This document shows positions 3,433 to 52,956 of a DNA stretch of 64,000 bases, piece by piece. Every line of letters begins with the position of its first letter. Positions within the stretch are counted from its first letter, which is position 1. Both the position numbers and the translations under genes were made by a program. The notes under the pieces were generated by a model. The model searched no databases. It was not told the origin of the DNA and saw only the letters and a list, made by a program, of their open reading frames with translations. The DNA comes from a virus (Duplodnaviria; Caudoviricetes): positions 18,212 through 82,211 of IMG/VR virus record IMGVR_UViG_3300037467_002029; one strand, given 5' to 3'.

Positions 3433-3837
3433 TCAGTACCCCGGATTGTGATGAACGAGCTTCATCTCGAAAGCGTCGATGAGCCCTCCGGAGCTCGGGA
3501 TGGCCTTCGGGATTTTCAGCGGCTCCCTGAAGCGGACTGTCAGTTGACCAAGGTGAGGATGTCGGAAGTCGAACGGCTTCCAAAGGCCATGCTGCTCGTA
3601 GAAGAGCTCGAGACGACGCGCGTTGTAACGCGGGTTGGTGCTCTGATCGAAAAGGCCCGTGCCCTTCAGGTACCAATACATGCCCTGCAGCTGCACGACG
3701 AAGCTCTTCTGATAAGGCACTCGCGGCTTGGATGAGAAGTACCAGCCGTTGAAGGACACACCTTTCCCATCCCCCGACGGGGGTTCAGTTTCCGGCACCA
3801 TGTAGTCCGGACAGAAGTCGAAGAGATCGTTAGCCAC
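3433..3837 (-). CDS. Distal tail protein, lambda gpM-like
   Basis: 134 aa directly after the tape measure gene; F..FYEQHGLWKPFDF pattern. Confidence 0.65.
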   Translation of the reverse strand: MANDLFDFCPDYMVPETEPPSGDGKGVSFNGWYFSSKPRVPYQKSFVVQLQGMYWYLKGTGLFDQSTNPRYNARRLELFYEQHGLWKPFDFRHPHLGQLTVRFREPLKIPKAIPSSGGLIDAFEMKLVHHNPGY

Positions 3838-6800
3838 CCTGTGCCACCTGTTTGATTAGCTGCTTGGTCGGACCGCCGCGGTAAATGTCGTTGGCGACTA
3901 CCACGAGGACGTCATTCGGCCCCATCTGGGGCTTGTCCTCCGGGGCCACGACGTAGACGTTCATGTTCTGCATGGCCGGCGGTGGCATCACGACCTTGGG
4001 ACCGAAATCGCGCATTGCCAGCGCGCCGCGCTCATTGAGCGCCCGCATGAAGTCAGGGCCTACGCTGTCGACTGCAGGCTTCCGAACGATCCACTCCCCG
4101 TTCGCAACCTTGCGATAAGTGCTGTCACGATTGGGAACGCCGTCACGAATGTGCTCGCCGCGGTAGGCTCCTTTGACCTTGCCGCCGTAGAGCATCCCGG
4201 CGTTGAGATCGATGCCCGATGCGGCTTCTGCCGACCGGGCATTCGCGATAACGGAGTCACCTGATTGCCCACCAATACCCAACGCCGCCTGGAGGATCTT
4301 CACGACGATCATCTTCGCAATGAGCTTGATCAGATACTGGATGATCGACTGGACCATGTTGCGGAAGGCTTCCCGCATGGACATGGTCCCGCTGATCACG
4401 TTCCCCAGGAACTCTTCCATCGACGCGGATACGGTTTCAAGCGCACCGCCCAGGTTCATTTTGATCATGTCGGCCCAAGAGGCCGTGAGGTTGTGTGCTT
4501 CGCGGAAGTTCTGGACCGCGCCAGCCCAGGCCTGGCTCATGCTCGTGGGCAGCTCGGCGAGACCACCGAAGCTCGCCTTGAGCTCGGCGTTGTCGTTCGT
4601 CAGGCCAACGATCTTGAGGTGCAGATCCTCGAGTGACTTCAGTGCCGGATCGATGTTCGTGAGCAGGTCGTGCTGCTTCGCGGCGTCCGAGACCCCGGCG
4701 ATGTTGTTGAAGGCTGCGGTCAGGCCAGCGATACGCTGATCGTTGATACCGATTTGGGCGGCGTCGCGCTGATCCCTCGCGCGCGCGGCCTGGCGCTCGA
4801 GATTGGCTCGGACGTAATCGGGAACTTTGTTCTTGAGATCTTCGCGATCGAGCGAGCTCAGCCTCGACTGCACCATGTTGAGGCGGTGGTCGGCTTCCTC
4901 TTCGGCGGTCTTGGCGACGCGCTCGACAGCGTCGACCATGACCTGCAGCGCCTTGGCGATCTGCTCACCGACCTGGCGCTGCGTCTCTTCGCGCTTGGCA
5001 CTGATCTCGCGATTGAGGTCGTCGATCATGTCCTTGCCGCGACCAGAGTTCGGATCGAGCTTCAGCTGTTTGATCTGGTCCCGGACCTGCTCGGTGCGGT
5101 CGGCGATCCACTGATCAAGAGCCTTGTCGACCCGCCCGATGTTCTGCTGCAGGCGATCGGGCGTCAGCGTCCTACTTTGCGCGACGATGAGCTCGCCTTC
5201 TGGCCCGGTTGAGACTTTGCCCCCAGGGTTCAGGAGCCCCTTGATTGCGTTCGACAGCTCGGCGGCCGATGCTTTCAGGCTCAGCGAGTCAGCGGCGCGC
5301 TCTTGACGGTTGGCCAGCCCCCCATGGTTCTTCTTTTTTGATTCCGGTGCTTCCGGGTGGGCCCCACTTCCGATGAAGCCTTCAAGCTGCTGAATGAGCG
5401 CGTCGTAGGCACCGGCCACGCTGGCGGTCTTGCCCTGCTTCGCCTTCTCATACTGTGCGATCTTCGCCTTGATCTGGGCATCAGGCTTGCCGGCCAGCGC
5501 CGATGTTTCGGCCTGGAGCGCGGCGCCCTTCTTCGTTGACAGCTGTCCTACGATGTCGAGCTGACCACGAGCCTGCTGTGACGCGCGCAGCGCATTCACG
5601 CCCTTGTCGAGCGAGACTGAGAACTCATCAACGAAGTGCTTAAGCTCGGCCGGGAGTTTTGCGGCAGCGTCGAACAGCTGCCGGCGGAGCGTATCATTGC
5701 CCGGGTCGGCGATGACTGACTGGTAGAGCCCCTGCACGTTCTTCGGCAGGCGATTGAACGCTCCGTTCTGGAGCCCCGTCTGGGTGATCGAGTTCGCCTG
5801 ACCGATGAACTGTCCGCCCTGAGCGCGTGCGGCGACCGCCTGCGTTTGAAGCGCGCTGCCGAGAGTCCGCAGCTGCTCGAGCCGATAATTGCGAAGCGCC
5901 GCAGTCAGGTTGTCATAGCTGACCGTCGTGCTGTCGAGGTACGACGCAAGCCCCTGAAAGCGCGTGGAGAGTGTGGCGACTTCCGCCTGGAGCGCCATCT
6001 GATTGGAGCTGAGCTCCTTACCCCGAACGTAAACACGAGCCGTCGCGTCGTCGAGCGACGCGAGGACAGTGCGCTGCTTGCCAACAGCTTCTGTCGCCTG
6101 ATTGAAGGCGGTCGTTGTCCGCTCAATCCCTTCAGCGTGAGCGTCTTCGGCGTCAGCGAGATCGTCCTTGATCCGCTGGTAGTCTTCCATCTGCTGCAGG
6201 ATCTGAGCCTGCTTCTCGGTGTCGAAATAGCCCGTCGCCGAATACGCCCGCTCGAGCTTGGTGAGCGTTTCATCGGACAGGTTGTCATTGACCGTCTTGA
6301 AGTAGCTCTCGAGCGCGTCGGTGGCTGGCTTGATGGCATTGCTCGTCGTGTCGTTGACGATGTTCTTGAACCGCTGCCATTCGGCGGCGAGCGAGTCCTG
6401 ACCCTTGGCCGCCGCTTCCGCCGCCTGGCCGATCTGGTTCTGAGCGATGATCTGCTGCTGGATCTCCTCACGATTGTTGCGGAGAACCAGGTACGCCGCG
6501 GCGGCGCGCGTCTCGAGCGTCTTGTAAGCCGCGGCGCTGTCAAAGCCGGCGGCGGCCAATCGGTTGAGCACCTCGGGCAAGCCGAGCTGATCGACGTCGA
6601 TGTCGGCCATCGACAGGTGAAGCTTCTTGAGCTCCGCCGCGAGCGCTTTCGTCGGCGTCTGCAGGTCGACCAGGAATTGGCGGATGCCGGTTCCGATGGT
6701 CGAGCCTGAACGAATGCCGGCATTGGCCATCGTGGCCATGACAGCTGTCAGCTCCTCGAAGCTGATCTTGTTCTCGTGTGCGGTCGCACCGGCATATTGG

Positions 6801-30457: not shown

Positions 30458-30813
30458 TCGTACACAAATACGGGACTTGTGACTTAGGAAAAAGCGAAAA
30501 TTACCCCCGGACAATTTGGGGATGATCCGTCTTAGTGTGACGTTTCCCCACAACAAGAACGTGGCACCCTTCCTCGCCTAAGTGCTTGGAAACGTTCATC
30601 TTTCTGGCACCATGTATAACGATGTCAGTGTGTTACTAATACTATACAAGTATTGGTATTCTACCTGGTAGGCCCGTCTATGGTGAGCACATGGACAGGC
30701 AAACGCCCCTCTCGGGAGCCACGGCTCTCTTTGTGCCCTCGCCACTGGCGGGGGCGCAAGGCGTGCGCGCTGCCCATGCTTGGGAAATTTCCCATATTTC
30801 AGGAGATTGTGAC

Positions 30814-41594: not shown

Positions 41595-43742
41595 ATGCTA
41601 TTGGACACTGAAGAGCGAACAGTCACGTCCGTGGGCCTCCAACAGGTGGCCCGCGCGACGATCAAGACGTCGCCCAAGATTTTCAACTTTTTCGCCGACC
41701 AAACCTACGCCAATAAACCGAAGGCCATCTGTAGGGAGCTAGCCGCTAACGCGGTCGACAGCCATGTGATGGCCGGCAAGGCGGACGAGCCGATCGAGAT
41801 CTGGCTCCCAACCCTGCTCGACCCAACCTTCCGGGTCCGCGACCACGGACTGGGCATGAGCCACGAGTTCATGATGACCCAGTTCATGTGTTACGCCGAC
41901 GGCTCGACGAAGGATCAGTCGAACCAGGCGATCGGTGGGTTCGGCATCGGCTCCAAATCACCATTTGCTTATGTTGACCAATACACGGTCAAAAGCATTT
42001 TTGATGGCATCGAGAGCGTCTACTCGATCTTCAAGGACGAGGATGGCATCCCGGCGATCGGCCTGTTGGGCCAGCGCGCGACGCAAGAGTCCAATGGCGT
42101 CAGCGTCGAGTTCCCGGTCCAGCCCGATGACTTCCGCACGTTCGAGGAAGCCGCGTTCGAGGCGCTCCGCTATTTCGAGCCGTTGCCCGACGTCAAGAAT
42201 GCGAGTGAAGGCAGCTTCGCTCCGCCCAAATATGTGAGCCGCGGCGCCACCTGGGGCATGCGCGAACAGGCCGGCGATCTGCTCATCGTCATGGGCGGCG
42301 TGCCCTACCCGGTGAGCGTCAGCAACCTCTCTTACAAGTTCCCGAGCGATAGCCCGGCGCGCAAGCTGCTCGGTTACGGCTTGGACCTGCGCTTGCCGAT
42401 CGGCACCTGCTCAGTTGCCTTGTCGCGCGAAGCGCTCAGCTACGATGACCGTACCATCGACGCGATCCGTGTCGCCTGCGAGAACGTGATCGAGGAGGTG
42501 AAGGCTTCCTTCGCCACCATGTTCGATCAGTACGACAACGCCTGGGAAGCCGCCGCCGCGCTGTTCCGCGAGGTCGGGGATAACGGCTACGGGGCGCGCG
42601 CCGAGTTCCTCAAAGAGAACGCACAGTGGAAGGGTGAGCCCCTCCACCTGACGCTCCAGTATCAGATGCTTGGCAGTCACGAATACGAGAAGAGGGTCGT
42701 GCCATGCTGGGGCTACCAGATCTGCAGCATTGAAGGCCGCAGCGACCGCGCTGGTCGCGGCGGACGTGTCCGCAAGGTCACGACCAGCTGGCAGCAGCCA
42801 GACAACGGCTTCAAGGGACAGGGCGGCTTCGCCCCCGGGCGTATCGCCACGCTCCTGATCGATGATCTGCCGCAGAAGTCCAGCTCGAAGGCCGCGCGCA
42901 AGATCAAGGAGTTCGCCGAGGAGACCGGCAATCGGATCCTGGTCGTGCGTCCTGATGAGGATCAGGCGCTCGAGATCAAGGACGTCCTCAATGGTTTCGG
43001 CAATCCGCCCGCCGATCAGGTCGTGCTGACGTCGAGCCTGCCTGAACCGGAAATCGACAGAGTTTACGTGAAGAACAAGGACCGACCCAAGGTCCGGATG
43101 TTCAGTTACGACGGAAGCCATATCCGGAGCTCGCGCGGCTACGGTTATTCGGACAGCATCAACCCCGGTCAATTCGGCAAGGATGGTGTCTACGAGATCC
43201 CATACGCCGACCAGCCCACCAGCGGTCTCCTCGTCGTCATGGAGCAATTCGAGATCCCGCGCGGCGAGATCCAGCAGCTTGTCAATGCCGGGTTGCTCAA
43301 CTGGCGCGAGCTTCGCTTCGTCAATGCTGGCGACGCCAAGAAGCTCAACAAGCAGAATTGGACGATGTTCAACGTCGAGGCCGAGCGCCGCAAGAAGGAG
43401 AAGCTTAGTGCTTATCCTGAGCTCGCTCAGCGTCTCGCCCTCTCGAATGCCCACGAGATCAAGTGGCTGTTCGAGATGTTTGCCCGCAACCCCCAGCGCG
43501 ACTTCACGTCGAGGAAGCCACTCGGGAAAATCTTCAAACTCTACCAACAGTACGTCGAACCGCTCGATCACGAGCAGAAGAAGCTCGCGCAGTTTGTCAC
43601 CGCCAAGCTCCCTCGCGGCGTGAAGCCCGAGGAGCTTCGAGATCAATTCAAAGCCAAGCAGCCCAAAGCCAATCGGCTCCTGTCGCTGCTCCCGAACCAC
43701 CTCGATGATGAGGACTTTGCTCTCCTCCAGGAGAACCTATGA
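41595..43742 (+). CDS. rIIA: rIIA-like protein (N-terminal GHKL ATPase)
   Basis: RELAANAVDSH, VRDHGLGMS and STK...IGGFGIGSKSPFAY motifs; paired with rIIB. Confidence 0.85.
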   Translation: MLLDTEERTVTSVGLQQVARATIKTSPKIFNFFADQTYANKPKAICRELAANAVDSHVMAGKADEPIEIWLPTLLDPTFRVRDHGLGMSHEFMMTQFMCYADGSTKDQSNQAIGGFGIGSKSPFAYVDQYTVKSIFDGIESVYSIFKDEDGIPAIGLLGQRATQESNGVSVEFPVQPDDFRTFEEAAFEALRYFEPLPDVKNASEGSFAPPKYVSRGATWGMREQAGDLLIVMGGVPYPVSVSNLSYKFPSDSPARKLLGYGLDLRLPIGTCSVALSREALSYDDRTIDAIRVACENVIEEVKASFATMFDQYDNAWEAAAALFREVGDNGYGARAEFLKENAQWKGEPLHLTLQYQMLGSHEYEKRVVPCWGYQICSIEGRSDRAGRGGRVRKVTTSWQQPDNGFKGQGGFAPGRIATLLIDDLPQKSSSKAARKIKEFAEETGNRILVVRPDEDQALEIKDVLNGFGNPPADQVVLTSSLPEPEIDRVYVKNKDRPKVRMFSYDGSHIRSSRGYGYSDSINPGQFGKDGVYEIPYADQPTSGLLVVMEQFEIPRGEIQQLVNAGLLNWRELRFVNAGDAKKLNKQNWTMFNVEAERRKKEKLSAYPELAQRLALSNAHEIKWLFEMFARNPQRDFTSRKPLGKIFKLYQQYVEPLDHEQKKLAQFVTAKLPRGVKPEELRDQFKAKQPKANRLLSLLPNHLDDEDFALLQENL

Positions 43743-44815
43743 ACTACACCCTCACTGACACGTCGATCACCGTCCTTGACGAGTCGACGTTTGAGCCACG
43801 GACCATGCCCTCGACGCACCCCGCGTTCGAGGAGGTGGTCGAGGCCGTTCGAGCCGGCGATGCCGACGAGGTTCGCCGGATCATGGATCTACCGGCCGTG
43901 ATCGCCGACTTCACCCAAGGCCTTGTCCAGGTTGTCGACCGTGTCCTGTATTTGAATGGTAGACCATTAGATACGAGCGCCACGCGCCGCGTCCTCCAGT
44001 TCATGGACCAGGGCCGGCCGGAGCTCGCCAAGCCGCTGTGCAACTTCATCGAAAAGGTCGCGCAGAACCCCAGCCGCCGAGCCGTCTACGGCCTGTACGA
44101 TTGGGCCGAGAAGTCGGGCCTGCCGATCACCCCGGAAGGCGACATCATCGCCTGGAAGATCGTCAAGGAGGACTACCTCGACATCTACTCGAGCTCCTTC
44201 GACAACTCAGTCGGCAAGACCGTCGAGGTTCCACGCTACGAGGTCGACGAGAACCCGGACCAGACCTGCAGCCACGGTCTCCACGTTTGTTCCACCGCCT
44301 ACCTGCCGCATTATGGCACCGGGCCCGGCTCGCGCGTCATGGTCGTCAGGGTCAACCCCAAGGACTTCGTCGCCGTGCCGCGTGACTACAACTGCTCGAA
44401 GGCGCGCGTCTGTCGCTACGAGGTGATCGCCGAAATGCCGCGGGAGAAGGCGAAGACCTACCTGCGCGACCAGTATGTCTACGACCCGAAGTTCAACAAC
44501 TGCGGGTTCCGTGACGGCACGCTCGACTGCGACGTCGAGGTCGGCGAGTTCTACCGGATGCGCGACGGCCGGGTCGTCGAGATCCAGCGCTATGACGATG
44601 ACGGCGCCGAATATCCGTACTGTGGTCGCATTGTCGGCGGCGACGGCGGCGAGCTCTCGTGGAGCTATGACGGCATCTACACGTCGCTCGAGGACGAGCA
44701 CGAGTACGATCTGGTCGAGCACCTCGAGGACTTCGATCCGGATTTCGAGCCTAGCGCCGTGGCCGAGGCGCCGCGCAAGTCGCACTGGTTCACTCGCATG
44801 ATCTTCGGCGACTGA
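43739..44815 (+). CDS. rIIB: rIIB-like protein with extra C-terminal domain
   Basis: TCSHGLHVCS and VNPKDFVAVP.DYN.SKARVCRYEV motifs. Confidence 0.85.
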   Translation: MNYTLTDTSITVLDESTFEPRTMPSTHPAFEEVVEAVRAGDADEVRRIMDLPAVIADFTQGLVQVVDRVLYLNGRPLDTSATRRVLQFMDQGRPELAKPLCNFIEKVAQNPSRRAVYGLYDWAEKSGLPITPEGDIIAWKIVKEDYLDIYSSSFDNSVGKTVEVPRYEVDENPDQTCSHGLHVCSTAYLPHYGTGPGSRVMVVRVNPKDFVAVPRDYNCSKARVCRYEVIAEMPREKAKTYLRDQYVYDPKFNNCGFRDGTLDCDVEVGEFYRMRDGRVVEIQRYDDDGAEYPYCGRIVGGDGGELSWSYDGIYTSLEDEHEYDLVEHLEDFDPDFEPSAVAEAPRKSHWFTRMIFGD

Positions 44816-45791: not shown

Positions 45792-46883
45792 ATGATCCAC
45801 GACCGCATCTACAAGCGCGACAGCCAGGGCCGGCTGCGCGTCTGGTTCATCGAGCAGGACGGCTCGCGGTACCGCGTGCACTCCGGCCTCGAGAAGATGG
45901 ACGCCACTGTCGCCGTTACTGGCTGGACCCAGGCGCGCGCCGCGAGCCAGCCCACCGACCAGGCTCAGGCCGACTTCGAGATCGCTTCAGCTTACGAGAA
46001 CAAGCTGACGCGCGAGTACCACCGCACGATCGAGGCCACCGATAGTGGCGCGCACTTCTTCAAGCCCATGCTGGCGAAGGAGTTCACCGGCTGGGATCCG
46101 AAGTGGCACGAAGTCGTCGTTCAACCCAAGCTCGACGGCATCCGCTGCATTGCGACCGAAGCCGGTCTCTTTAGCCGCCAGGGCAAGCCGATCACGGCGG
46201 TCCCGCATATTCACGCGCAGCTCATGCCGTTGTTCCAGGCCTACCCCGGCCTGGTACTCGACGGAGAGCTCTACAACCACGAGTACAAGGAGAACTTCAA
46301 CGCGATCGTCTCGATCGTGCGGAAGCAGAATCCGACCGCCGACGAGCTCGAGCTCGCCGAGGCCAAGATCCAGTACCACGTCTACGACGTCCCCTCGAAC
46401 AACGCCCGCTGCACGAAGACACGGCTCGAGATGCTCGGCTGCGCTGTGCGCGACCACGGCATCGAGGGTGCGATCGTGCTCGTTCCAACCGAGCGGGCCC
46501 ACCACCGTGATTTGATCGATAGCCTCTACGGCATCTGGCTCGAGCAGGGGTACGAGGGCCAGATGGTCCGCCTGCCCGGCACCTACGAGCAGAAGCGGTC
46601 GAAGCTCCTCCTGAAGCGCAAGGAGTTCCAGGATGCGGAATACGAAGTCATCTCAATCGAGGAAGGCGAAGGCAACTGGGCCGGCGTTGCGAAAGCTGTC
46701 CGCTGCCGTCTTCCTGATGGTCGCGTTTTCGGAGCAGGCATCCGCGGATCGCGCGAGCGCGCTGCTGAACTCCTCCATGAAGCCCACAAAGTTGCGACTG
46801 TCCGCTTCTTTGCTCTGACGCCTGACGGCGTGCCCCGTTTCCCCGTCGTGACCAAGTTTCACGGCGCTGAGAGGACGCTCTGA
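45792..46883 (+). CDS. ATP-dependent DNA ligase
   Basis: QPKLDGIRC (motif I), LDGELY, YHVYD, YEGQMVR and LLKRK. Confidence 0.9.
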   Translation: MIHDRIYKRDSQGRLRVWFIEQDGSRYRVHSGLEKMDATVAVTGWTQARAASQPTDQAQADFEIASAYENKLTREYHRTIEATDSGAHFFKPMLAKEFTGWDPKWHEVVVQPKLDGIRCIATEAGLFSRQGKPITAVPHIHAQLMPLFQAYPGLVLDGELYNHEYKENFNAIVSIVRKQNPTADELELAEAKIQYHVYDVPSNNARCTKTRLEMLGCAVRDHGIEGAIVLVPTERAHHRDLIDSLYGIWLEQGYEGQMVRLPGTYEQKRSKLLLKRKEFQDAEYEVISIEEGEGNWAGVAKAVRCRLPDGRVFGAGIRGSRERAAELLHEAHKVATVRFFALTPDGVPRFPVVTKFHGAERTL

Positions 46884-47629
46884 TGGCTGAGACCAAGATC
46901 ATCCGCGAGATTACAATGGTCACGCGCCGTTGGCTCGACATCGATGACATCGAGCAGGCGCTGCGCGACCAGTACGATCTCCACGTCCAAGACGATATCA
47001 AGTTCGAATGGGAGACGGGCGGTTTGGACCATGTCCGCGGTGTCGAGATCGTCCACACGACCAGAGAGACGAAGGAAGGCTGATGAAAATCTCCTGCCTC
47101 TTCAGTGTCGACTGCAACTATGACCAGCCCGACCACAATTTGGTGTGCTGGTGGCAGAAGAAGCCGACGCTCGAACAACTTGCTGAAACGCTTACCGGTA
47201 CGAAGCTCGCCAATCTCGATGAGGAAACAATCGTCGAGGTCGTCGCGATCTTCACCGGCAAGGAAGGCAAGATCAAACGGTATCACTACGACACCGTTTT
47301 CCGCATCCAGGACGTGACCGAAGGCTGCACGGTGAACCACGGTTGACCCCTCTTATCCTGTCGGTGTGACGAGCCTCTCGTCATGCCGGCCGGATGAGCA
47401 AGGCCAAACCGCAGAGCATCATCGCCGACTATCCGACCGTCGAATTGTCGGGTCCGCGTCGTCTCATTCTCAGCCTCGGCCAGTGTGGCCGCATGTTCGG
47501 TGTCGATCTTCCTGAAGATGCCGGCCCTATTACGGCCCGCGCCGAGCTTTCCGTTCCGCATCTCGATGAGAGCGGATGTCCACAGGATGCAGTCTTCCGT
47601 CGCTTCCTGCTCGACTAAGGAGCTTTCCT

Positions 47630-48412
47630 ATTTCGTCACTCGCTGCCCTGCGCCGTCGCGCGGGGGTACTCAAACTTTTGTCGCCGCCTGACGCCAATCC
47701 CAAAGTCAAGAAGAACCAGAAGATCGGAGTGCTAACCACGGTACTGCACCTGGCGCCGGGGAACATGTCCGGTCACGAGGTGTGCCCAAAGCGAAGTGCA
47801 GGCTGCTCAGCTGCCTGCCTCCACTTCGCCGGTGACCCCTCGCGCCTAGAGCGAAAGACCAAGGCCCGTGTCGCCAAGACCAGGCTGTTCTTCTCTGACC
47901 GCAACTTGTTCATGAACATCCTCGTGCTCGAGCTCTTGGCGCATGTCCGCGCCGCAAAGCGGAAGGGTATGAAGCCTGGGGCCCGCCTCAACGGAACGAG
48001 CGATATCGTTTGGGAGAAGAAGCGTTTCATTCTCTTCCCGGAAGTCGCCGCGCAGCTCGGCCGTAGCGGTGACAACATCATCGACCTGTTCCCGGAGATG
48101 AGCTTCTACGACTACACGAAGATCCCGGGGCGGACCTCGCCGGCCAACTATCACCTGACCTTTAGCGAGTCTGAAACCAATTCTGTTGAAGTTGCGCGCG
48201 AAATGGCTCGAGGGATGAACATCGCTTCCGTCTTCGTTGGCGGGTTACCGGGAAACCATCTCGGTAGAACGGTCATTGACGGAGACGAACATGACTATAG
48301 ACCAGCGGATCCAGCCCGCGTCGTCGTGGGTCTGAAGGTTAAGGGCGTAAAAGGCAAAGCCGACCGATCGGGGTTCGTTCAGAATTCTGTAGTGCTCGGT
48401 CTGGCAGCATGA
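47630..48412 (+). CDS. GP88-like protein
   Basis: VCP...GC..ACL, RLNGTSDI.WE, FYDYTK and YHLTFS motifs. Start uncertain; ATT 47630 follows AAGGAG. Confidence 0.7.
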   Translation: MSSLAALRRRAGVLKLLSPPDANPKVKKNQKIGVLTTVLHLAPGNMSGHEVCPKRSAGCSAACLHFAGDPSRLERKTKARVAKTRLFFSDRNLFMNILVLELLAHVRAAKRKGMKPGARLNGTSDIVWEKKRFILFPEVAAQLGRSGDNIIDLFPEMSFYDYTKIPGRTSPANYHLTFSESETNSVEVAREMARGMNIASVFVGGLPGNHLGRTVIDGDEHDYRPADPARVVVGLKVKGVKGKADRSGFVQNSVVLGLAA

Positions 48413-48417
48413 TCGAT

Positions 48418-48586
48418 GGGTGTCAGAACCCGGACTCTGCTAGGCGTGGATTTCCCCGCCGAACTCGCTGCGTGCTTGGCGGTGCGCTGCAACCTGGCTT
48501 CGAGAAGCCGGGGGCGGCGCGCCATGTCCAGGGCCCTTCCGGGCTTAAAAGCCGTCGGCCTGTCGCAGAGCAGGTTCTGACCCCCC
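48418..48586 (+). ncRNA. Candidate structured non-coding RNA (~170 nt)
   Basis: Three-tier closing helix plus internal hairpins; all non-Watson-Crick pairs in the helices are G-U on the + strand (see findings). Confidence 0.6.
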
Positions 48587-48695
48587 GGTGAAGGAGCTCT
48601 TCACAAAGAGCTTAGGAGAACAAACCTAGAACATTTCGCTTGCGTTATAGGAAACTTCCTATCACATGCTTAGCGGATGACGAGAGTCGTGGCGT

Positions 48696-49082
48696 ATGTG
48701 GAGACGGATTTGGGGCGAACCAGTGCCCGACGCGCAGGAGCGTCAGGTCAATGCCTCGCTTGCGAGACACTTGATCACTGGTGGGCTGTTCCTGGAGCAA
48801 TTGCTTGGCAACTACGCCTGCGGCCTCGTAGCGCTCGAAACCTTCTTCGGCACACCCGACGGCGAAGTGACCGCCGACTATGTATCGCACCGGCTCGGTG
48901 GGCTCATCAGCGAAGACACTGCCCGTCGCCGACTCAACGACATGGGCAAGCGAAATATAGTCACAATACGAAAGGCCGGTCGGGGCATTTATTTCAAGCT
49001 CAGACCAGAGCTGGCCGAGGCGGCGATTTCCTTCATGAAAGGAGAACCGATTGTGCTCCCGGCGTCGGAGAGAGCCGCCTAA
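48696..49082 (+). CDS. Winged helix-turn-helix protein
   Basis: ADYVSHRLG..ISEDTARRRLNDM...IVTIRKAGRGIYFKL. Confidence 0.65.
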   Translation: MWRRIWGEPVPDAQERQVNASLARHLITGGLFLEQLLGNYACGLVALETFFGTPDGEVTADYVSHRLGGLISEDTARRRLNDMGKRNIVTIRKAGRGIYFKLRPELAEAAISFMKGEPIVLPASERAA

Positions 49083-49233
49083 CTGAGTTAACGAAAGATG
49101 ACCGCAATTTGCGGCAAGTTTTCCTTGCGGTGGAGTCACTTAACAATCAAAGGGGCCTCGCCGAATTAACATCCTGTAATGGGGATTTAACGTTGCAGCC
49201 CGGAGGTGCTGCGCGATGTGAATGCTGTTGAGC

Positions 49234-49250
49234 AAGTGACTTAGTCACTT
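49234..49250. promoter_or_regulatory. 17-bp palindromic element
   Basis: AAGTGACTTAGTCACTT, intergenic. Confidence 0.8.
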
Positions 49251-49296
49251 GGTGAGACACGGGGCAACAAGCTCGGTAACAACGGTTAGGAGGGTC

Positions 49297-49614
49297 ATGA
49301 AAGATCGCTCTGAACCACTTTCAAACTTGGCATTTTCAGCCTTCGCACATAATGAAGCGCCCCCTACGGGGGGCCTCAACATGACGAAGGATGAGATGCT
49401 GCTGAAATTGCTCGATGAGCTTTGCCGCTCGTGGATGGAAACATCGACGCCGGTTGAGATTGGTTCGGACCTCGAAAAGGTCCGGATGCTGAAGGAGGCT
49501 CGAGCTCAGATTACAGAGGGGAGACCCTCCGAATTGGTTCAACAGCTATACAGAGAGGTTTTCCTTCGAGATGTGTGGAGCGGGGACAGAAATCAGTCGG
49601 GGAGTACAGCGTAA
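49297..49614 (+). CDS. Hypothetical protein
   Basis: AGGAGG RBS, ATG 49297 (alternative 49381). Confidence 0.5.
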   Translation: MKDRSEPLSNLAFSAFAHNEAPPTGGLNMTKDEMLLKLLDELCRSWMETSTPVEIGSDLEKVRMLKEARAQITEGRPSELVQQLYREVFLRDVWSGDRNQSGSTA

Positions 49615-50089
49615 ACAGCTGTTGTCTGAACGCGATGAGCGTATCATCGAGTTCATGCGCCAGGGAAGGCCAGTTGCCGTTATTGCGGAACTGGAAGGGT
49701 TGGAGCCCGACTATTGTCGAAAAGCTACCCGCCGCCTCTCCGCTGATTACTGTATCGACTATAATCCTGACCGAGAACCGGTAACTTCGCTTTTGGGCGA
49801 GGCAAGCCGGCGCTTCCGCAACAACATCGCGAACGTCCTCTATCAGTTCCGCAACAAGCCCTGCCAGCACCCGCTGGCCGTCGCTCGCGACACTGGGCTT
49901 ACTCAGGCTCAACAGATCCTTGCGTCCGAACGTGGCGGACGCCACAACTTCAAGCTCACCGAGCTTGAGCGGCTTGCCGTGGCGACGGAGCAGGATTTCA
50001 CGAGGATGATGATTATTGCACTCTTGAAAGGCACGACGGAGGCGGACCAGCTCCGGCTCCAACGGGTGCTGGCATGTCTGAACAGCTAA
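49571..50089 (+). CDS. Putative double-HTH transcription regulator
   Basis: N-terminal LSERDERIIEFMRQG...IAELEGL is LuxR-like; C-terminal VARDTGLTQ...ERG..NFKLTELERLA is XRE-like. Confidence 0.5.
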   Translation: MCGAGTEISRGVQRKQLLSERDERIIEFMRQGRPVAVIAELEGLEPDYCRKATRRLSADYCIDYNPDREPVTSLLGEASRRFRNNIANVLYQFRNKPCQHPLAVARDTGLTQAQQILASERGGRHNFKLTELERLAVATEQDFTRMMIIALLKGTTEADQLRLQRVLACLNS

Positions 50090-50560: not shown

Positions 50561-52216
50561 ATGCTCGACCCGGGCCACGCCCCTTTTCGCTCTCAATTCA
50601 GCCGCGATATCTTCAACCAGAAATACCGGCATGACGGTGCTGAGAGCTGGGACGAGCTCGCGAACACGCTCGTGCTCGACGTCTGCAAGGAGCACCTGTC
50701 GATTGGGGATATGACCCAATTGGCCGAATATATTTCGGAGATGAAGTTCATCCCCGGCGGGCGCTATCTCTACTATGCCGGTCGACCTAACCCCTTCTTC
50801 AACAACTGTTATTTGCTGCGCGCGGAAGAGGACACTCGAGAGGATTGGGCGAACCTGTCATGGAAATCGGAAAGTTGCTTGATGACCGGTGGGGGCATCG
50901 GGGCGGATTACTCGATCTACCGGCCGGCTGGTGCACGAATTGCTCGTACCGGCGGCGTGGCGTCGGGACCAATCCCGAAGATGGAAATGATCAACGAGAT
51001 CGGCCGGCGGGTGATGCAGGGTGGCTCCCGAAGGAGTGCGATCTATGCCTCCCTTAACTGGGCCCACGATGACGCCGCGAAATTCCTCGTGTCCAAGAAC
51101 TGGGACGAGATGGTCGTCGCCGGTACCGGCGGGCTCACGATCTGGGATCTGAAGCAGGCCGACTTCAACTATCCGGCGCCGCTCGACATGACCAACATCT
51201 CGCTCAATTACGATGACGAGTGGGGCTTCGACGCGACGCACCCGACATTCGTCAAGAATGTTGAACAGGCGCTCCGCACCGCAGAGCCGGGCTTTAGTTT
51301 CAACTTCGGTCCGCATCGGAACGAGACACTCCGTAACGCCTGCACCGAGGTGACGTCCGAGGATGACAGCGACGTCTGCAACCTTGGAAGCCTCAACCTG
51401 GGGCGGATCGAATCCATCTCTGAATTGCGCGACGTTATCCAGCTCGCCACCAAATTCCTGATCTGCGGCACGCTTCGCGCGAAGTTGCCGTACGACAAGG
51501 TGTATGACATCCGTCAGAAGAACCGGCGCCTCGGCCTCGGCCTGATGGGCGTGCATGAATGGTTGATCAAACGAGGATACCGTTATGAAGTCACCGACGA
51601 ACTTCACACCTGGCTTGGAGTCTACGCTGACGAGTCTGATGATGTGTCCGCGGATTTCTCCGACCGCCTTGGCATCTCTCGCCCGTGCGCTAACCGTGCC
51701 ATCGCCCCGACAGGCACTATCGGAATTATGGCCGGCACTACCACTGGGATCGAGCCTCTTTTCGCGGTTGCTTACCAGCGTCGATACCTGAAGAACGGCA
51801 CGGACTGGCACTACCAGTTCGTCGTCGACGGCACCGCCAAGGTGATGATCGAGGAGTATGGCGTTGACCCGGAGAACCTCGAGGGCGCTATCGATCTCGC
51901 TGCCGACTACGAGCGCCGCATCAAGTTCCAGGCGGATGTCCAGGACTATGTCGACATGGCGATCAGCTCGACCATCAACCTGCCCAAGTGGGGCAGCGAG
52001 CTGAACAATCCTGACACCGTGCCGGAGTTCGCAAAGACGCTGGCCAAGTACGCACCGCGGCTCAGGGGCTTCACCTGTTATCCAGACGGCGCGCGCGGCG
52101 GACAGCCCCTCACCCCGGTCTCCTACAAGGAGGCCAAGCTGCACGAGGGCCAGGTCTTCGCCGAGACGTTCACTGATATCTGCGATCTAACAGGCGGCGG
52201 GACATGTGGCAGCTGA
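50561..52216 (+). CDS. nrdJ: Class II (adenosylcobalamin-dependent) ribonucleotide reductase
   Basis: NCYLL, NACTE, CNLGSLNL, IAPTGTI and ISSTINLP motifs; terminal CxxxxxxC; no beta-subunit gene adjacent. Confidence 0.88.
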   Translation: MLDPGHAPFRSQFSRDIFNQKYRHDGAESWDELANTLVLDVCKEHLSIGDMTQLAEYISEMKFIPGGRYLYYAGRPNPFFNNCYLLRAEEDTREDWANLSWKSESCLMTGGGIGADYSIYRPAGARIARTGGVASGPIPKMEMINEIGRRVMQGGSRRSAIYASLNWAHDDAAKFLVSKNWDEMVVAGTGGLTIWDLKQADFNYPAPLDMTNISLNYDDEWGFDATHPTFVKNVEQALRTAEPGFSFNFGPHRNETLRNACTEVTSEDDSDVCNLGSLNLGRIESISELRDVIQLATKFLICGTLRAKLPYDKVYDIRQKNRRLGLGLMGVHEWLIKRGYRYEVTDELHTWLGVYADESDDVSADFSDRLGISRPCANRAIAPTGTIGIMAGTTTGIEPLFAVAYQRRYLKNGTDWHYQFVVDGTAKVMIEEYGVDPENLEGAIDLAADYERRIKFQADVQDYVDMAISSTINLPKWGSELNNPDTVPEFAKTLAKYAPRLRGFTCYPDGARGGQPLTPVSYKEAKLHEGQVFAETFTDICDLTGGGTCGS

Positions 52217-52296: not shown

Positions 52297-52956
52297 ATGA
52301 ACGACCAATCTGCGATCTTGGACGGAGCGCCAGTTTCGGCCGCGCGAGCCGTCCAGCTCGGTGAGGGCATCGAGCTGCTCAACGGCCAGATGTTCGACTT
52401 CTTCCATCCCGAGCGCACAGAGCTCGAGCTCGAAGAGATCATCCATACGCTATCGAACGTCTGTCGCTTCGCCGGTCACGTCCACTACTTTTTCTCGGTA
52501 GCACAGCACCTGCTGAACGCGACCTATTTGGCGCCGCCAGGTCATCGCCGCGACGCAGGCCTGCACGACACTTCCGAAGGCTTCACGAACGACATCGTGA
52601 CGCCACTGAAATTCGCTATCCCGACGTTCGGAGAGATCGAGCGGATCATCGAGCCCGACATGGCTCGGCGTTTCCGCTTCCGCTATCCCCTGTCGCCCGA
52701 GGTTAAGCTCGTCGACCTGCAGTTGTTGGCGGTCGAAAAATCGGTCCTTAAGCCCTCGTCCAGTCATTGGGCGGTGCTCGACGGTATTCCCTTTGAGCAC
52801 ATAAAGGTTTCAACGCTCCCATACTGGCTCGAGCGGATCATTCATCCGTTCCGACGTAAGAAGGCTCTGTTCATGGGTCCGATGACGCCGAAGCAGGCAA
52901 AGCGCGCCCTGCTCAAGCGTCTGAACGAGCTTCAGCATGAGGAGCTGCGGCCATGA
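52297..52956 (+). CDS. HD-domain phosphohydrolase (YfbR-like)
   Basis: CRFAGH...SVAQH...LHDTSE motifs. Confidence 0.8.
   Translation: MNDQSAILDGAPVSAARAVQLGEGIELLNGQMFDFFHPERTELELEEIIHTLSNVCRFAGHVHYFFSVAQHLLNATYLAPPGHRRDAGLHDTSEGFTNDIVTPLKFAIPTFGEIERIIEPDMARRFRFRYPLSPEVKLVDLQLLAVEKSVLKPSSSHWAVLDGIPFEHIKVSTLPYWLERIIHPFRRKKALFMGPMTPKQAKRALLKRLNELQHEELRP

Follow-up and report, generated by a model that had tools for sequence, protein, structure and literature searches.

A structured RNA in a phage genome belongs to an uncatalogued family of phage and prophage RNAs of Alphaproteobacteria

The RNA element and its surroundings

The window, by which we mean the whole 64,000-nucleotide stretch of DNA that was analyzed, comes from a virus record that represents a complete genome of 82,211 bp with direct terminal repeats. 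A structured RNA of ~170 nt is encoded on its + strand (Table 1), which confirms the existence of an element that an earlier note on this DNA, made from the letters alone, had put forward as a candidate phage ncRNA. The element is single-copy in this genome. It begins 6 nt past the stop codon of a GP88-family gene, and 91 nt separate position 48586 from the next ORF (48677-49231), all on the + strand. We found no consensus promoter in 47000-50000; with an RNA start only 6 nt after the GP88 stop, read-through would put the RNA in the 3' part of the GP88 mRNA.

On the + strand, the RNA folds at -93.8 kcal/mol as compared with -73.8 ± 4.3 kcal/mol in 200 dinucleotide shuffles, none of which was as good (z = -4.66), so the element passes a fold-energy comparison that the earlier note had named as a means of refuting it. 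The complementary (-) strand folds at -79.9 (z = -2.24), and this difference between the strands bears out the suggestion, drawn at first from G-U pairs seen on one strand only, that the + strand RNA is the relevant molecule. We conclude that this stretch of the window encodes a genuine, strand-specific structured RNA.

The same stretch is also spanned by a 60-aa ORF rich in Arg, Gly, and Pro. A search of 5.8 billion proteins returned no homologue of this ORF, though the DNA that carries it has ~100 relatives, and we agree with the initial impression that it is spurious. Neither ARAGORN nor Rfam detected a tRNA or tmRNA in the window or in the two further records screened (L038/L040), as had been anticipated from the lack of recognizable motifs. 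Rfam 15, applied to the window and to the members of the family described below, gave no family at the gathering threshold, and permissive scans gave sub-threshold matches only (RNaseP-T, malK-III, miRNA noise, weak sRNA-Xcc1, and weak c4-a1b1).

Table 1. Coordinates, in window numbering, of the RNA, its parts, and adjoining features.
Feature	Position	Strand	Evidence
Upstream GP88-family gene	47576..48412	+	PF17338, E 2e-35
60-aa ORF overlapping the RNA, judged a non-gene	48409..48591	+	no Pfam/PHROG family, no homologue
Whole family core, 5' GGG to 3' C-run plus GG	48418..48588	+	fold z -4.66; blastn relatives; models R1/R2
Box a1, 5' strand of outer closing helix, hypervariable among members	48422..48430	+	pairs with 48573-81
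Box b1, 5' strand of inner closing helix	48435..48440	+	pairs with 48565-70; compensatory changes across family
Variable hairpin; other members have 1-2 extra UUGGCG-loop hairpins here	48443..48460	+	MFE structure, alignment A5, hairpin census
Hairpin H3, 6-bp stem 48470-75/48482-87, invariant UUGGCG hexaloop 48476-81	48470..48487	+	
Hairpin B, 3' strand entering invariant G-run 48507-14	48493..48512	+	helix 7 (A5), helix 8 (A7)
Invariant stretch including CGCCA 48520-24, complementary to the UUGGCG loop	48513..48531	+	search pattern
Hairpin C (48531-46), then invariant A-rich junction	48531..48552	+	helix 8 (A5), helix 9 (A7)
Hairpin P5 (48558-62/48571-75), loop with box b' 48565-70 (complement of b1)	48558..48575	+	
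Box a' 48573-81 (complement of a1) plus invariant C-run 48581-88	48573..48588	+	
7-bp hairpin, phage backbone rather than RNA family	48595..48612	+	hairpin-forming stretch also in L001

Homologues, covariation, and conserved architecture

A blastn search with the window element against 401 Sphingomonadaceae genomes returned two matches (E 6e-13 and 2e-11, in genomes G324 and G018), and R1, a covariance model that took the window as its only input, aligned to both from end to end with scores of 75 and 48 bits. The closing helices of these two relatives differ in sequence from that of the window and remain complementary, their junctions are conserved, and the three-sequence alignment contains 13 pairs changed on both sides as compared with 4.5 ± 1.8 in shuffles. 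The ORFs that follow the element in the window and in G018 have no similarity to each other. Used as exact patterns, two invariant stretches retrieved 31 viral-contig loci and 71 metagenome stretches; the invariant stretch 48513-48531 used as a pattern retrieved 20 viral and 71 metagenome stretches. A second model gave 34 + 2 + 66 full or near-full matches (40-136 bits), and there are 94 distinct RNAs from viral contigs, metagenomes, and three alphaproteobacterial genomes. The family models R1 and R2 matched 100 further loci over their full length; both were seeded with the window, whose own score is thus by construction.

Members are rare in assembled genomes, with one found among 151 Sphingomonadaceae by model and one among 401 Alphaproteobacteria by pattern and model combined; a pattern search of the latter allowing two mismatches yielded mostly noise, with an equally high control, and a single confirmed genome. 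Searches of GenBank phages and PLSDB plasmids by blastn, using the window element and a typical member as queries, returned nothing meaningful, and exact 19-22-mers of the window element were absent from the viral contigs. We conclude that the RNA belongs to a family of phage and prophage RNAs of Alphaproteobacteria, 157-220 nt long and ~100 members strong, that is uncatalogued (no Rfam 15 match). A new ncRNA class had been one of two ideas in the earlier note, and it holds in the sense of a real structured RNA with ~100 relatives and no family in Rfam 15, 6S included.

Relatives of the GP88 protein are present in Sphingopyxis and Sphingomonas assemblies. One relative, 53% identical to that of the window, lies on a 75,082-bp contig (L020/L008) that is listed twice, as a viral record of IMG/VR and among the contigs of a 'Thermosynechococcus' MAG; possibly a phage contig was binned into the MAG.

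Compensatory changes, which the earlier note had expected of a genuine RNA, were found in two independent alignments. In the first (A5, 34 sequences), 89.6% of cells pair as compared with 78.1% in shuffles, and 218 cells are changed on both sides (shuffles, 62 ± 7; slid partners, at most 46). In the second (A7, an independent metagenome set with 63 distinct rows), the corresponding numbers of both-side cells are 359, 106 ± 9, and at most 64. The closing helix of 19 bp is 97.5% paired in A5, with compensatory change at 12 of its 19 pairs (11 of 19 in A7). Hairpin P5 is 98.2% paired and compensatory at all five pairs (25 cells as compared with 4.3 ± 1.8 shuffled and at most 11 in slid controls). 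Across both alignments, hairpin B is 89-92% paired with compensatory change at four pairs, and hairpin C is 91% paired with compensatory change at five of six pairs, its closing pair being an invariant G-U.

The resulting architecture combines free variation with strict conservation. Boxes a and b of the closing helix vary in sequence from member to member while keeping their complementarity, and ~60 invariant bases are common to the members. Of the first 34 members, 32 have one to three hairpins in which a UUGGCG hexaloop sits on a covarying stem of 3-10 bp, and the remaining two carry variant loops. The conserved structure is a multi-branched core of hairpins without a large central bubble, and the rod-with-bubble layout read into the single sequence gives way to a branched one with loop-specific hairpins. 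The window copy has every core feature, namely the two-part closing helix, the UUGGCG hairpin (one only), the invariant core, hairpin C, P5, and the C-run end.

The three helices first proposed for the window (48422-30/48573-81, 48435-40/48565-70, and 48441-45/48558-62) are all found in the sequence, as are hairpins at 48484-48520, 48533-44, and 48595-48612, and the family data amend this picture at three points. In place of a hairpin at 48456-48482, they back the UUGGCG-loop hairpin H3; the third tier of the closing rod, though present in the sequence, competes with the family-supported P5 (98% paired, five of five pairs compensatory); and the conserved 3' end lies at 48588, two bases beyond the 48586 given initially. 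The hairpin at 48595-48612 is missing from other family members, and the closest related phage (L001), which does not carry the RNA, has a hairpin-forming stretch at the corresponding place.

The C-run at 48581-88 can also pair with the G-run at 48507-14. The closing helix, P5, and this G-run:C-run pairing are mutually exclusive, so more than one fold is possible, and covariation cannot say which of them forms in the cell. For the window RNA, the closed rod (-94.8 kcal/mol) is strongly favored over the open 3'-domain fold (-68.5 kcal/mol). The complementarity between the UUGGCG loop and CGCCA was read from the sequence; we found no compensatory change for this pairing, and loop variants in two members (L070/L062) are uncompensated.

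Two single loci deserve mention here. ARAGORN called a 'tRNA-Pyl (cta)' inside one member (L056:827-921, - strand), which is almost certainly false but shows that a cloverleaf can be drawn from part of the core. One contig (L053) carries two diverged full-length members (639-850 and 4268-4476), 3.4 kb apart on the same strand and with different boxes.

Downstream box copies and stand-alone members

We analyzed the flanks of 36 members. Most have a sigma-70-like promoter whose predicted transcript start lies a few bases before the 5' GGG, often with a terminator-like hairpin further upstream. On the 3' side, most have a conserved hairpin followed by a copy of both 5' closing-helix boxes of the same member. 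In approximately nine of ten, this third copy of boxes a and b is placed 20-60 nt downstream, over the ribosome-binding region of an ORF; it contains a purine-rich, Shine-Dalgarno-like run and ends ~10 nt before the AUG. Pairing of the 3' strand with the member's own downstream region is worth -24 to -31 kcal/mol, as strong as its pairing with the 5' strand, and ranks 1-4 among 35 heterologous downstream regions in 23 of 35 members. In the enlarged set, members were classed by ATG position and not by the z-score of downstream pairing, which is unreliable there because many members share boxes; an ATG lies at +45 to +70 in 74 of 83 members with enough flank, including all 43 classed as having their own target copy. 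In most members, then, the start of a downstream ORF lies under a helix-swap arrangement, and we infer that the swap controls translation of that ORF.

Seven loci (L067, L063, L043, L049, L061, L087, and L082) have a hairpin ~45-65 nt upstream of the RNA start, before the promoter, which is also UUGGCG-looped, with small loop variants in L049, L087, and L082; a fourth copy can thus lie outside the RNA.

The regulated ORFs are heterogeneous, many of them acidic, and none has a Pfam family. The often acidic products (L041:5398-5976, L055:7910-8305, L046:10145-10993, L066:4015-4662, and others) have in common a short 'RLIAFLD..DGD.DLE' region and repeated 'EPSLG(W)' motifs. A tyrosine integrase is encoded downstream on the same strand in seven loci, and four loci have a tRNA gene at a distance of 1-3 kb, in one of them (L071) just beyond the integrase. 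These integrase and tRNA neighbors place member RNAs in prophages, at the integrase end. No neighbor is universal among the members, the integrase being found in only some loci, and we found no conserved protein partner.

The window copy does not share the majority form. Pairing with its own downstream region does not rise above background (-18.2, rank 11 of 35), and no second box pair was found anywhere in the 82-kb genome, either by pattern search or by a two-box mismatch scan, the latter giving 61 loose combinations as compared with 40-65 in shuffles and none better than three mismatches. With the downstream third copy absent, the window belongs to a stand-alone minority of which there are about ten other members, several with good promoters; for three of these, too, the complete records hold no second box copy. 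In four stand-alone loci, a small ORF of 73-100 aa with a shared 'W.F..G..V' motif follows the RNA (L064:1457-1690, L070:2520-2747, L068:13078-13380, and L062:1098-1319), and a dNMP kinase gene is nearby on the opposite strand.

Past 48588, the window continues with phage backbone that it has in common with L001, whose GP88 protein is 85% identical. Both flanks of the element align between the two phages, and L001 has 24 nt where the window has 48413-48585. At 3823-3850, L001 has a few bases that resemble the two RNA termini (CGT followed by a G-run, and GG preceded by a C-rich run), which makes an internal deletion in L001 no less likely than an insertion in the window. No element was found downstream of GP88 in 16 viral-contig relatives, nor anywhere in five whole relative records. 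We found no tyrosine integrase in the genome of the window's phage; three related records are classed as proviruses.

Possible function and relation to known RNAs

We consider it most probable, at roughly 60%, that the window RNA is a stand-alone (orphan) core of this uncatalogued alphaproteobacterial phage and prophage family, for which we infer a translation switch based on helix swapping, and that it is not a 6S RNA. In the switch, backward pairing of the 3' strand would close the core and leave the ORF open, and forward pairing would mask the ORF start. Such a switch could work in the manner of C4 of P1/P7, with the box sequences setting specificity, or in the manner of a riboswitch, with the core sensing a factor. 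The window RNA would form the tail end of the GP88 transcript and, going by the fold energies above, would stay closed. It might act through the conserved core, for example by titrating a factor to which the switch versions respond, or alternatively in trans on matching modules of resident prophages. We hold these last proposals, production as the 3' part of the GP88 message and action via the core or in trans, with low certainty, a remnant being the alternative.

C4 has two boxes, with upstream and downstream copies of the target. The family resembles C4/immI (RF01695, RF03163) as a phage or prophage RNA at the head of an operon with two short antisense boxes, whose target boxes lie both upstream and downstream, the downstream copy falling over the translation start of the first gene in most members; in both, box sequences vary between elements and one target box lies within a hairpin loop. 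The differences are also substantial. The family RNA is two to three times longer and has an invariant core, its hosts are Alphaproteobacteria, the regulated ORFs are not recognizable antirepressors (no Pfam family), and the window copy has only the upstream box pair, without any a2/b2. We know of no UUGGCG-loop hairpins from C4. Neither five member records nor local scans yielded a hit to the C4 covariance model at E<=10, and the c4-a1b1 model aligned on the downstream target region of two members at E 0.08-0.19, far below cut-offs. For immI of P1/P7, PMC8198154 (citing Citron and Schuster 1990) describes C4 as an antisense RNA encoded before icd-ant and required for ant to be off.

A second partial likeness is to sRNA-Xcc1 (RF02221), whose model aligned to the 3' domain with 20.5-23.7 bits in three members and 14.0 in the window, against a cut-off of 53; in L065, the match coincides exactly with the 3' domain. 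The two have in common a G-run/C-run closing stem, an internal hairpin, and then a short single-stranded junction. The large 5' domain of the family is absent from sRNA-Xcc1, which is known from gammaproteobacterial integrons, islands, and phages. sRNA-Xcc1, isrK, and C4 occur in tandem within ~400 nt in a Xylella genome, and all are present in APSE phages (PMC12189769, PMC7313666). A distant kinship of the family with this C4/isrK/sRNA-Xcc1 group of phage RNA modules is plausible.

To our knowledge, few riboregulators have been described from phages of Alphaproteobacteria; what is new here is an uncatalogued structured RNA family that numbers ~100 members and shows strong compensatory change in each of two independent sets. 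The boxes are hypervariable and present in triplicate, which suggests immunity or specificity groups that operate through RNA, as in the heteroimmunity of P1/P7, and immunity-like control would bear on a prophage operon that leads to the integrase in several elements. As the regulated ORFs are in no known family, an immunity role for the switch is put forward as a possibility. The strongly conserved core hints at an additional partner. An orphan in a phage where no tyrosine integrase was found raises the question of whether phages can use such RNAs against each other's control circuits.

Conservation of the core is very high, which is unusual for a plain antisense RNA, and a general argument (PMC5737381) takes extreme conservation as a sign of sophisticated RNAs and not of antisense ones. 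This counts in favor of a riboswitch-like sensor, a possible if unlikely reading in which the core would be an aptamer or RNP scaffold that binds a ligand or macromolecule of the cell, the closing helix would report binding to the ribosome-binding site, and the orphans would be ligand sponges. Translational riboswitches and T-boxes likewise combine a folded conserved core with a closing helix set against a downstream helix that masks the ribosome-binding site, and the two partners of equal strength available to the closing helix make a classical expression platform. The persistence of ~60 invariant bases while helices vary freely, the identical UUGGCG loops that are modular in number (one to three), and the stand-alone members with no antisense target in their own genomes fit a sensor as well. 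Against it, the closing-helix sequence is hypervariable and triplicated and some members stand alone, as is not the case for riboswitches and T-boxes; three-copy boxes of this kind resemble specificity determinants, which a riboswitch does not need; the regulated genes, heterogeneous and unannotated, suggest no ligand; and the loop-to-CGCCA pseudoknot has no covariation support.

The second alternative, which we regard as unlikely, is that the window copy is a non-functional remnant, a switch core without platform or promoter, whose stable 3' hairpin may protect or terminate the GP88 transcript. The lack of a promoter and of a target copy, the single UUGGCG hairpin, the very stable rod, and a closest relative that does without the RNA are all in keeping with decay, and a copy without its own promoter and target may indeed be a decaying remnant. 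Every helix and all invariant core positions are nevertheless intact in the window, and the ~10 other stand-alone members, several of them well supplied with promoters, argue for a working stand-alone form, as the preferred orphan reading has it.

Capture of tRNA 3' ends has precedents in T-box leaders and RNase P. The invariant core might similarly sense or scaffold a cellular macromolecule, for example with the UGGC of the hexaloop capturing tRNA 3' ends and the orphans serving as sponges; we think this a long shot, and if true, it would make the family a new class of phage riboregulator sensing the physiological state of the host.

The other idea in the earlier note, a 6S-like decoy of host RNA polymerase, is not borne out and strikes us as highly improbable: the ~170-nt size and long terminal helix do recall 6S RNA (RF00013), but the core is a different one and branched, with no large open bubble, RF00013 matched nothing in the window either at E<=10 or at the gathering threshold, each of the three genomes tested, including two with a family member, has a 6S-like locus of its own that the family model misses, and in most members the RNA is coupled to an ORF start. 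A MITE-like inverted-repeat mobile element inserted after the GP88 gene, to which the ~150-nt indel relative to L001 and the inverted-repeat ends might point, was rejected as highly improbable on the strength of one copy per genome, arms that vary and covary instead of being conserved, and junctions without visible target-site duplication; moreover, G-U pairs occur on one strand only, the interior is conserved, a promoter and a coupled ORF accompany most members, and the short stubs of both ends kept in L001 fit an internal deletion.

Among the genes near the element are RIIA- and RIIB-like genes (41595-44815), a DNA ligase (45792-46883), a class II ribonucleotide reductase (50561-52216), and a dNMP phosphatase-like gene (52297-52956). 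Upstream of the ORF at 48677, a conserved intergenic stretch (48640-48664) includes a perfect 6-2-6 palindrome (48648-48661). Both L001 and L002, which are without the RNA, retain it, and it resembles an operator or promoter that belongs to the phage backbone; palindromes of a second, related type occur at 30781, 31487, 31736, and 34288.
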